Shown here: one piece after another, positions 12-683 of the stretch | How positions within the stretch are numbered: the first letter of the stretch is position 1 | Layout: the number at the start of each line of letters is the position of its first letter | DNA from: a virus | Taxonomy: Duplodnaviria; Heunggongvirae; Uroviricota; Caudoviricetes | Length of the DNA: 8,451 nucleotides | Direction: 5' to 3' (one strand) | IMG/VR virus record: IMGVR_UViG_2548876857_000001 | Location: 1 to 8,451 of that record | Position numbers and translations under genes: made by a program | The notes under the pieces: generated by a model | Told to the model about the DNA's origin: nothing | Databases searched by the model: none | Seen by the model: the letters and a program-made list of their open reading frames with translations, nothing else

Positions 12-43
12 AGGCCTGCTGGTAATCGCAGGCCTTTTTATTT
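12..43 (+). terminator. Rho-independent terminator upstream of the first ORF
   Basis: Perfect 8-bp stem AGGCCTGC (12-19) / GCAGGCCT (28-35) with 8-nt loop, followed by TTTTTATTT. Seen directly in sequence. Confidence 0.6.
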
Positions 44-56
44 GGGGGAGAGGGAA

Positions 57-335
57 GTGAACGATAGCTACCGACAGTTTGAAAACTGGTGGTCAAAAGA
101 CAAAAGCCAGTTCACGGGAGACGATGAATTAAAAGAGTTTGCCTGGGTGATATGGCAGGCATCGCGCTCTGCTATTGAACTGGATATCGACTGGCCCGAA
201 TCGAATGACGACCTTTGGAAAGATGGTGAAGAAGGTGCTTATGCGATGGGTTATGAGGGTGGGCGTGACAAAACGGTAATTGCAGTAATGAAAGCCATCA
301 GGGCCGCAGGAATCAAAGAAAAGAATTTCGATTAA
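57..335 (+). CDS. Hypothetical phage protein (acidic, Trp-rich); function unknown
   Basis: ORF track frame 42..335. GTG at 57 sits about 6 nt after a GGGGGAG/AGGGAA purine-rich RBS; the track's start at 42 is a TTG with no RBS. No family recognised from memory. Confidence 0.5.
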   Translation: MNDSYRQFENWWSKDKSQFTGDDELKEFAWVIWQASRSAIELDIDWPESNDDLWKDGEEGAYAMGYEGGRDKTVIAVMKAIRAAGIKEKNFD

Positions 336-467
336 GCAAATATCACTTCAATAAATCGCTTTTAAGGCATCACAATCGCTCTGTGGTGAGGTAAGCACGT
401 GCAAGGCATGCCGATAAGCAGCGAGAATGAAAAATGCGTCAGAATGCGTTTGAGGAGGTTTTAAGAA

Positions 468-683
468 ATGAGTACGATAGCTGAGCTTGTCAGGGCTAAT
501 TTTCGTGAAGAGTTGGTGCGTTGGTATCGGTATCGTTCATCGTCCAGTTTGCCGCTTGATGAGTTGTATGAGCATTCACCTGCCGCACGACGCTATCCGC
601 GTGACCGTGTTCTTCGACGGTTGTTCAAACTCAACAATGAGTTTCAGCGCAACAGAATTATCCGGAGTCTGGATTTTAAGTGA
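468..683 (+). CDS. Hypothetical small basic protein (71 aa); function unknown
   Basis: ATG at 468 preceded by a strong RBS (GAGGAGG, about 8 nt upstream). Arg-rich. No family recognised. Confidence 0.5.
   Translation: MSTIAELVRANFREELVRWYRYRSSSSLPLDELYEHSPAARRYPRDRVLRRLFKLNNEFQRNRIIRSLDFK

Follow-up and report, generated by a model that had tools for sequence, protein, structure and literature searches.

In a prophage of the Stx-type lambdoid group, the interval between the terminator tR2 and ninB is very probably a slot for swappable cassettes, in which two small open reading frames, referred to here as ORF1 (57-335) and ORF2 (468-683), are independently mobile accessory genes. Both are real genes under purifying selection. 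The window, i.e., the whole stretch of 8,451 nucleotides that was analyzed, is the nin region of such a prophage, as judged from its gene content in Pfam. The first-pass annotation had placed the two ORFs in a variable accessory region between the replication block and ninB, and the differing contents of the slot across phages bear this out. Its ORF coordinates, terminator, and ribosome-binding sites also hold as described, as does the acidic, Trp-rich and Arg-rich composition of the respective products.

Our overall explanation combines mobile slot genes, delayed-early expression, and products that would act as independent binders, and we give this combination a probability of roughly 55%. 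ORF1 or ORF2 occurs in well-studied Stx phages (933W, the Sakai prophages, and phi24B), and about one in ten complete E. coli genomes carries them. Both families have already been catalogued without a function, and since they are catalogued and the genes occur in such well-known phages, the novelty is low. The practical gains are modest. The tR2-ninB interval can now be read as a slot for cassettes whose junctions are precisely placed, and a further by-product of the analysis is the modular design of the ORF1 family.

Borders, contents, and junctions of the tR2-ninB slot

The first 1000 bases of the window are 99.0-99.6% identical to the best phage records, including VT1-Sakai, BP-4795, and Nil2, and at least 80% of these bases are present in 106 phage records and in 438 of 5426 complete E. 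coli genomes. The slot is bordered on the left by tR2 (12-45, plus strand) and on the right by ninB (887-1333, plus strand; PF05772, 9.1e-49), which encodes the Orf recombination mediator. It holds three cassettes in the window, namely ORF1, ORF2, and a Lar-family restriction alleviation gene (694-930, plus strand, 78 aa; PF14354, 1.8e-10; TIGR03655, 4e-17), whose start codon ATG694 is served by the Shine-Dalgarno sequence AAGGAG at 683-688. Beyond ninB, Pfam matches identify a Dam-type methyltransferase (1330-1857), NinE, an Ant-like protein (2311-2991), and a Rha/KilAC protein (3060-3788), followed by YbcO, RusA, NinH, and a metallophosphatase, and then by Q (5313-5831) and a lysozyme (6384-6881). 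Lar and the Dam-type methyltransferase are known anti-restriction functions encoded near ORF1 and ORF2.

A terminator scan identified tR2 as an intrinsic terminator with a stem-loop at 12-35 (8 pairs, 6 of them G-C) and the T-run TTTTATTTGG at 36-45. The identical sequence is annotated as tR2 in the Nil2 record, and P22 has a counterpart in a lambda-like terminator annotated after gene 12. This is the sole terminator found by a promoter and terminator scan of positions 1-1400. A simple consensus search of the same region, which weak or non-sigma-70 promoters could escape, detected no promoter-like site on the plus strand, and its single hit, on the minus strand at 684-657, is at chance level. 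By this consensus-based scan, ORF1 and ORF2 do not have the flanking promoter and terminator of their own that mark an autonomous "moron." In lambda, genes beyond tR2 are transcribed from pR only upon N readthrough. Because ORF1 and ORF2 lie behind tR2 without a promoter of their own, on the lambda model they are probably N-dependent delayed-early genes, expressed not in the lysogen but during lytic growth.

Following tR2 is a G-rich joint, GGGGGAGAGGGAA (44-56, plus strand), which, as judged from sequence comparison, forms a Shine-Dalgarno-like leader for the first cassette. It stands ahead of ORF1 in the window, and directly ahead of ORF2 in Bas106, Dewey, and phi24B. Some database records put the name NinA on features at this place. 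The "ninA" of P22 and Nil2 is similar to ORF1 in occupying the first position after the helicase gene; however, it is simply a frame of 25-26 codons that reads through the tR2 hairpin, and it has no relation to either ORF.

The contents of the slot differ from phage to phage. In P22 the slot is empty, with the helicase gene and the terminator followed directly by ninB. Dewey contains only ORF2 (54% identical) before ninB. An 89-aa ORF, tR2, and ORF2 follow one another in both phi24B and Bas106, and are succeeded by Lar in the former and by a 68-aa ORF in the latter. A 68-aa hydrophobic ORF takes the place of ORF1 in Stx2_356 and is followed by ORF2, and in mEp213 a 68-aa ORF precedes an ORF1-type gene that overlaps ninB. 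Besides the 68-aa membrane ORF and the 89-aa ORF, further occupants of the slot include an HNH endonuclease and DUF551.

The junctions of the cassettes carry traces of recombination. A repeat scan found an 11-nt direct repeat, GAT(T/G)AAGCAAA, whose two copies bracket the block consisting of the spacer, ORF2, and Lar: the left copy, GATTAAGCAAA (330-340, plus strand), holds the stop codon of ORF1, and the right copy, GATGAAGCAAA (886-896), holds the start codon of ninB. The spacer between ORF1 and ORF2 is 132 bp long (336-467, plus strand), and its first approximately 65 nt are a decayed 5' end of ninB. The sequence 3' of the ORF1 stop codon aligns with the ninB 5' end at the ORF1-ninB junctions of mEp213 and of another locus (L065), where the position of the ORF1 stop TAA corresponds to the GAA after the ninB ATG. 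The same ninB relic is also found ahead of ORF2 in Stx2_356, where another gene replaces ORF1. The spacer thus starts with a ninB relic instead of an operon junction, and it is not a regulatory region. A scan of the spacer (336-467) detected no promoter or terminator, its predicted RNA fold is not significant (z = 0.06), and an Rfam search of the whole window gave no match in 1-700; a candidate sRNA in the spacer was rejected on the last two grounds.

ORF1 and the PF26207 family

ORF1 (plus strand) encodes an acidic, Trp-rich protein of 92 aa (pI 4.47, 20 D/E vs. 12 K/R, 6 Trp), and corresponds to ST933Wp31 of 933W and ORF29 of Nil2. Its start codon is GTG, preceded by the G-rich joint; an alternative TTG at 42 lies within the terminator T-run and has no Shine-Dalgarno sequence. 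Among the fetched loci, ORF1-type genes start with GTG in 82 and with ATG in 23.

The two ORFs had been thought to match no family, which proved incorrect for both (for ORF2, see the next section). ORF1 matches phrog_343 with an E-value of 3.9e-28, its residues 1-92 aligning with positions 36-127 of the 135 in the profile, and 62 of 64 relatives found by profile search match the same PHROG. Among Pfam models that did not include PF26207, ORF1 had no significant hit. In addition, cluster representatives that are 97-99% identical to ORF1 carry the Pfam family PF26207 (Phage_phiTE_015) in precomputed hits, and through these representatives ORF1 very likely belongs to PF26207 as well. PF26207/phrog_343 is a very large family of phage proteins of about 90 aa. 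When 1.84 billion representative proteins were searched with a profile of the ORF1 family, 379 clusters had E <= 0.001, and with few exceptions these are stand-alone proteins 75-135 aa long; at E <= 1e-5, a profile search of clusters formed at 90% identity yielded 4163. All of the 120 listed among those 4163 clusters bear PF26207, and any names given to them are "hypothetical" or "phage protein"; the sources among the listed clusters are Escherichia, Salmonella, Enterobacter, Cronobacter, and their relatives.

A common feature of PF26207 proteins is the presence of three conserved blocks, MDESRKQFExW, WxxWQASRAAIE, and IRAAGIKVKE. The two segments between these blocks are hypervariable, not alignable across members, and freely recombining. 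Among 282 full-length members we counted 86 types of the N-terminal segment and 79 types of the C-terminal segment in 128 combinations; the N type of the window is paired with 7 C types, and the C type of the window is combined with 14 N types. This shuffling of N and C types means that the gene is itself a mosaic that recombines at the central block. ORF1 shares with its relatives the end-to-end alignment to phrog_343, the three blocks, and the place before ninB. It differs from them in its C-terminal variable module, DIDWPESNDDLWKDGEEGAYAMGYEGGRDK, which is one particular acidic type, and in a C-terminus that reads IKEKNFD instead of the usual IKVKE; the GTG start is a further peculiarity.

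The AF2 model of ORF1 contains helices at residues 3-15, 23-37, and 72-83 (mean pLDDT 68.8, pTM 0.40) and a low-confidence acidic loop at about residues 38-65. The conserved blocks overlap the predicted helices, namely helix 1 and the C-terminal ends of helices 2 and 3. The resulting three-helix scaffold is provisional, given that confidence in the AF2 models is no more than moderate (pTM 0.40 for ORF1 and 0.47 for ORF2).

Database searches identified no function. NCBIfam and PADLOC gave no match for ORF1 or ORF2, PDB sequence and family-profile searches gave none for ORF1, and fold searches were likewise empty, with no BFVD match at E <= 0.001. A literature search for functional studies of DUF7301, PF26207, vb_24B_15, phrog_343, phrog_1785, or phiTE_015 found none. 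The phages phi345 and phi367 carry both ORF1 and ORF2, and a published DefenseFinder anti-defence scan of these two phages reported only a methyltransferase, Ral, and Gam, flagging neither ORF (PMC12502783). Similar to the restriction-alleviation proteins Lar and Ral, ORF1 and ORF2 are small accessory early proteins of lambdoid phages. However, they share no sequence similarity with these proteins; Lar contains Cys residues and is zinc-ribbon-like, whereas a helical structure is predicted for both ORF1 and ORF2.

The combination of conserved blocks and hypervariable segments suggests that PF26207 is a diversified binding protein that tracks variable targets, although the hypervariable segments could instead reflect relaxed constraint rather than diversified recognition. 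As a tentative candidate role, possible but not one we would bet on, ORF1 and ORF2 may be independent small binders for host takeover or counter-defence. Each protein would then act alone, by binding. ORF1 would serve as a small scaffold whose variable loops recognize a variable host or competitor protein, and the Arg-rich helix of ORF2 would bind nucleic acid or an acidic partner; the opposite charges of the two proteins would be coincidental and no sign of a complex. Judged by its block and hypervariable-loop design, PF26207 may be a reasonable candidate for counter-defence screens.

The tight synteny between PF26207 genes and ninB points to the main rival of a host-directed binder, in which ORF1 would assist either the NinB/Orf recombination pathway or the replication helicase as an accessory factor. 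We sampled 80 loci with PF26207 genes of other subfamilies, and in 78 of them the gene lies between DnaB/DnaC/P (with or without Ren) and NinB; its right-hand neighbor is likewise ninB in 78 of the 80. The position immediately 5' of ninB is strongly conserved, the PF26207 gene abuts or overlaps the ninB frame in 45 of these 80 diverse loci, the tail of some homologs overlaps the ninB start, and the gene always comes after a helicase or loader gene. On the other hand, P22 has NinB without a PF26207 gene, two other genes separate ORF1 from ninB in the window, and PF26207 is named after an ORF of the virulent myophage phiTE. Lambda, too, has NinB and is not known to have a PF26207 gene. Hypervariable loops would furthermore be unexpected in the partner of a conserved phage protein. 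We therefore regard a role in recombination or replication as unlikely, though it is the strongest of the competing explanations.

A bolder version of the binder reading is that PF26207 represents a large unrecognized class of "mini-binders," in which two hypervariable, recombining loops on a conserved three-helix core would neutralize variable proteins of host defence or of competitor phages, and that DUF7301 would be a second, independent effector in the N-dependent slot. This is speculative, and we consider it rather doubtful. If it were true, the tR2-ninB slot of lambdoid phages would serve as a site for counter-defence cassettes, much as the P2/P4 hotspots do for defence.

ORF2 and its association with ORF1

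ORF2 (plus strand) encodes an Arg-rich, basic protein of 71 aa (pI 10.8, 14 Arg), with an ATG start and the Shine-Dalgarno sequence GAGGAGG at 452-458 (plus strand). The block GGAGG.TTTAAGAAATG, which covers the Shine-Dalgarno and start region, is invariant in all seven aligned contexts. ORF2 corresponds to vb_24B_15 of phi24B and ORF30 of Nil2, and many Stx phages carry copies with 99-100% identity to it. As a typical member of DUF7301 (PF23975) and phrog_1785, it matches both profiles over their full length, the former with 91.4 bits (cutoff 27; 3.8e-26; profile positions 1-64 of 65) and the latter with an E-value of 2e-33 (its residues 1-70 aligning with positions 1-70 of the 71 in the profile), and PGAP names it "DUF7301 family protein." The family has an invariant core, YPRDRVLRR, at residues 43-51, which is present in ORF2 and is followed by a nearly invariant Leu52. 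The flanks of the core are swappable, with two N-terminal and two C-terminal types in varied combinations. This design of a conserved core with swappable parts resembles that of PF26207 at a smaller scale. The AF2 model of ORF2 is a helical hairpin with helices at residues 4-25, 30-41, and 44-70 (mean pLDDT 75, pTM 0.47). The only match for ORF2 in PDB sequence and profile searches, to P22 Cro, was rejected as an artefact of one chimeric alignment row (P0112), in which residues 1-40 of P22 Cro are fused to the ORF2 C-terminus on a 3.2-kb contig.

Both proteins are present in 933W, VT1/VT2-Sakai, and BP-4795. Overall, ORF1 was found in 133 phage records and ORF2 in 183, and of the 5426 complete E. 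coli genomes 403 contain ORF1 and 536 contain ORF2 at full length, with about 200 more genomes containing only the C-terminal two-thirds of ORF1. We examined their co-occurrence in 80 IMG/VR loci with ORF1 at >= 87% identity. Most of these loci contain ORF1, ORF2, Lar, and ninB together; in nine, ORF1 abuts ninB without ORF2, in another nine ORF1 and ORF2 are present without Lar, and in two ORF2 is replaced by a version with 58% identity. ORF1 without ORF2 is found in mEp213 and these nine loci, and ORF2 without ORF1 in phi24B, Stx2_356, Bas106, and Dewey. In the sample of 80 loci from other PF26207 subfamilies, DUF7301 is present in 16, always immediately 5' of the PF26207 gene, which is the reverse of the order in the window; it was not found within 3.5 kb in the other 64.

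The first-pass annotation had taken the opposite charges of the two products as a hint of an interacting pair. As an obligate pair this does not stand: the ORFs occur singly, their order reverses, and the spacer between them starts with a ninB relic, so the charges are not a sign of such a pair. The two families share the slot and are often neighbors, and neither requires the other. Nevertheless, the data are compatible with some loose functional link between DUF7301 and PF26207.

A stronger version of the same idea is that ORF1 and ORF2 form a two-protein module, whether an acidic/basic pair, a toxin-antitoxin-like system, or an inhibitor-chaperone couple. Similar to type II toxin-antitoxin and other two-gene modules, they are adjacent small genes with oppositely charged products (pI 4.5 vs. 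10.8). They are linked in most Stx phages, the whole block being found in the same 438 or so E. coli genomes and 106 phage records, and the two families lie next to each other elsewhere, a few nucleotides apart (the 16 of 80 loci above, and L094). Unlike such modules, however, they show no obligate co-occurrence, no fixed order, and, in the window, no translational coupling across the 132-bp spacer with its ninB relic. Many phages have one of the genes and lack the other, the gene order flips from one context to another, and the 64 diverse PF26207 loci without a nearby DUF7301 gene tell against consistent co-occurrence as well as against a fixed adjacency. Neither protein is similar to known toxins or antitoxins, and Pfam, NCBIfam, and PADLOC detected no toxin or antitoxin domain in either. 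We consider a dedicated module improbable, and the notion of a pair matched by charge can be dropped.

Coding status of the two reading frames

Conservation and purifying selection had been proposed as a check on the two ORFs, and the outcome favors both as genes. We calculated pN/pS from the distinct nucleotide versions among 85 fetched loci and the window; these loci come from viral contigs and are near-identical. ORF1 has a pN/pS of 0.22 in frame vs. 1.16 and 1.35 in the two other frames. For ORF2 the overall value is 0.53 in frame vs. 0.71 and 2.36 off frame, the in-frame value being inflated by pairs at about 57% protein identity; among close pairs it is 0.15-0.46. The neighboring genes Lar, NinB, and Dam have values of 0.29, 0.24, and 0.07, respectively. 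In addition, divergent ORF1 homologs use different synonymous codons for their invariant residues, and the conservation is therefore at the protein level.

These results leave very little room for the view that ORF1 and ORF2 are functionless hitch-hikers, i.e., mosaic debris open by chance in a recombination hotspot. It is true that the slot is full of recombination scars, that several loci carry a frameshifted or truncated Lar, and that a phenotype is known for neither ORF. However, purifying selection acts on both at the protein level, the Shine-Dalgarno sequences and start codons of both genes are conserved, and the ORF1 family comprises thousands of clusters across Enterobacterales.

A homology search showing fragments of a larger gene had been named as the finding that would speak against the ORFs, and for ORF2 the candidate is a longer Lar-like protein encoded by 487/568-930, as annotated in RefSeq 933W, BP-4795, and phage 2851. 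ORF2 proved to be no Lar fragment. The Lar frame is indeed open from 487 to 930 in the window, RefSeq 933W has a 119-aa "Lar-like" CDS over the region with ORF2 not annotated, and the lower of the off-frame pN/pS values in the ORF2 region is little above the in-frame value. Nonetheless, this long reading is largely refuted, and ORF2 as an N-terminal extension of Lar was rejected: a stop codon five codons 5' of the Lar ATG breaks the frame in 22 of 62 Lar-bearing loci, so the extension is not conserved; the starts at 487 and 568 have no Shine-Dalgarno sequence, whereas ATG694 has one; the alignment to the Lar profiles does not start until residue 10-11 of the short form; ORF2 is kept in phages without any Lar (Dewey, Bas106, and Stx2_356); and among close pairs the pN/pS of 0.15-0.46 in the ORF2 frame compares with 0.59-2.1 in the Lar frame. 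The PGAP annotation likewise consists of DUF7301 and the short Lar, and the gain for annotation is that ORF2 is a real gene under the long "Lar-like" CDS of RefSeq 933W.

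Reading frames and cluster membership at ORF2

ORF2 (468-683; DUF7301, PF23975) is overlapped by a second open frame, as 71 codons are open 5' of the Lar ATG in the same frame as Lar (487-930), and this upstream extension traverses ORF2 in a different frame from that of ORF2 itself. The RefSeq records of phages 933W, BP-4795, and 2851 contain a long “Lar-like” CDS here and omit ORF2. In 22 of the 62 loci, the upstream frame is closed by a single T-to-A change, which in the tail of ORF2 corresponds to LDFK becoming LDLK. True Lar proteins (e.g., P0314, 78 aa) also fall inside the 90%-identity cluster of ORF2 (the cluster of P0082). 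Their inclusion is presumably a clustering artifact, bridged by long overlapping ORF calls, and accounts for the name “Lar family” given to some members of this cluster.

The match of the DUF7301 family profile to P22 Cro was rejected as false, being caused by a single alignment row, P0112. In this 68-aa protein, encoded on a 3.2-kb Logan contig, residues 1-40 of P22 Cro (100% identical) are joined to the last 28 residues of DUF7301. P0112 arose either by natural recombination or as a chimera during assembly.

Cassette junctions and gene order between tR2 and ninB

The stop codon of ORF1 is followed by a ninB relic, a decayed 5' end of that gene (window 330-400), and the block comprising ORF2 and Lar is flanked by an 11-nt direct repeat, with one copy within 330-400 and the other at 886-896. 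The repeat looks like the scar of a cassette insertion at the start of ninB. Several loci that hardly differ in other respects (L009, L017, L024, L028, and L034; L086, 3694-3931) carry a Lar gene with a truncation or frameshift, one copy being flagged “frameshifted” by PGAP, and such copies suggest that the Lar cassette is often lost.

Other arrangements of the slot were also observed. Five loci (L111, L112, L114, L137, and L141) carry tandem PF26207 (ORF1-family) paralogues, two per slot and ~430 bp apart. In E. coli strain 141 (L087, NZ_CP028614, 1780-2644), an ORF1-type gene (110 aa, with a different N-module) is preceded by a truncated 60-aa DUF7301 copy and followed by a full one, and thus both gene orders are present in one prophage. 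The same locus has an HNH endonuclease gene after the helicase. In some Stx2a phages (L002, 12-1811; L094, 1-1582), the DnaB-type helicase 5' of the slot, an ORF of 600-800 aa, contains an intein-like insertion with a faint LAGLIDADG match.

RNA genes downstream of the slot

Three Rfam matches, namely c4-a1b1 (2059-2111), isrK (2072-2148, 77 bits), and C4 antisense RNA (2175-2258, 65 bits), are located just 5' of an Ant-like gene (2311-2991). Together with this gene, they resemble the P1/P7-type antisense immunity module that controls an antirepressor.

No stx genes are present in the window, and the phage therefore appears to be an stx-negative relative of Stx phages. Stx phages carry the tRNA set ileZ-argN-argO, whereas the tRNAs here are of different identity, tRNA-Asn(GTT) and tRNA-Thr(TGT) (5895-6050), placed after Q (5313-5831) and before the lysis genes (a small ORF at 6169 and lysozyme at 6384).
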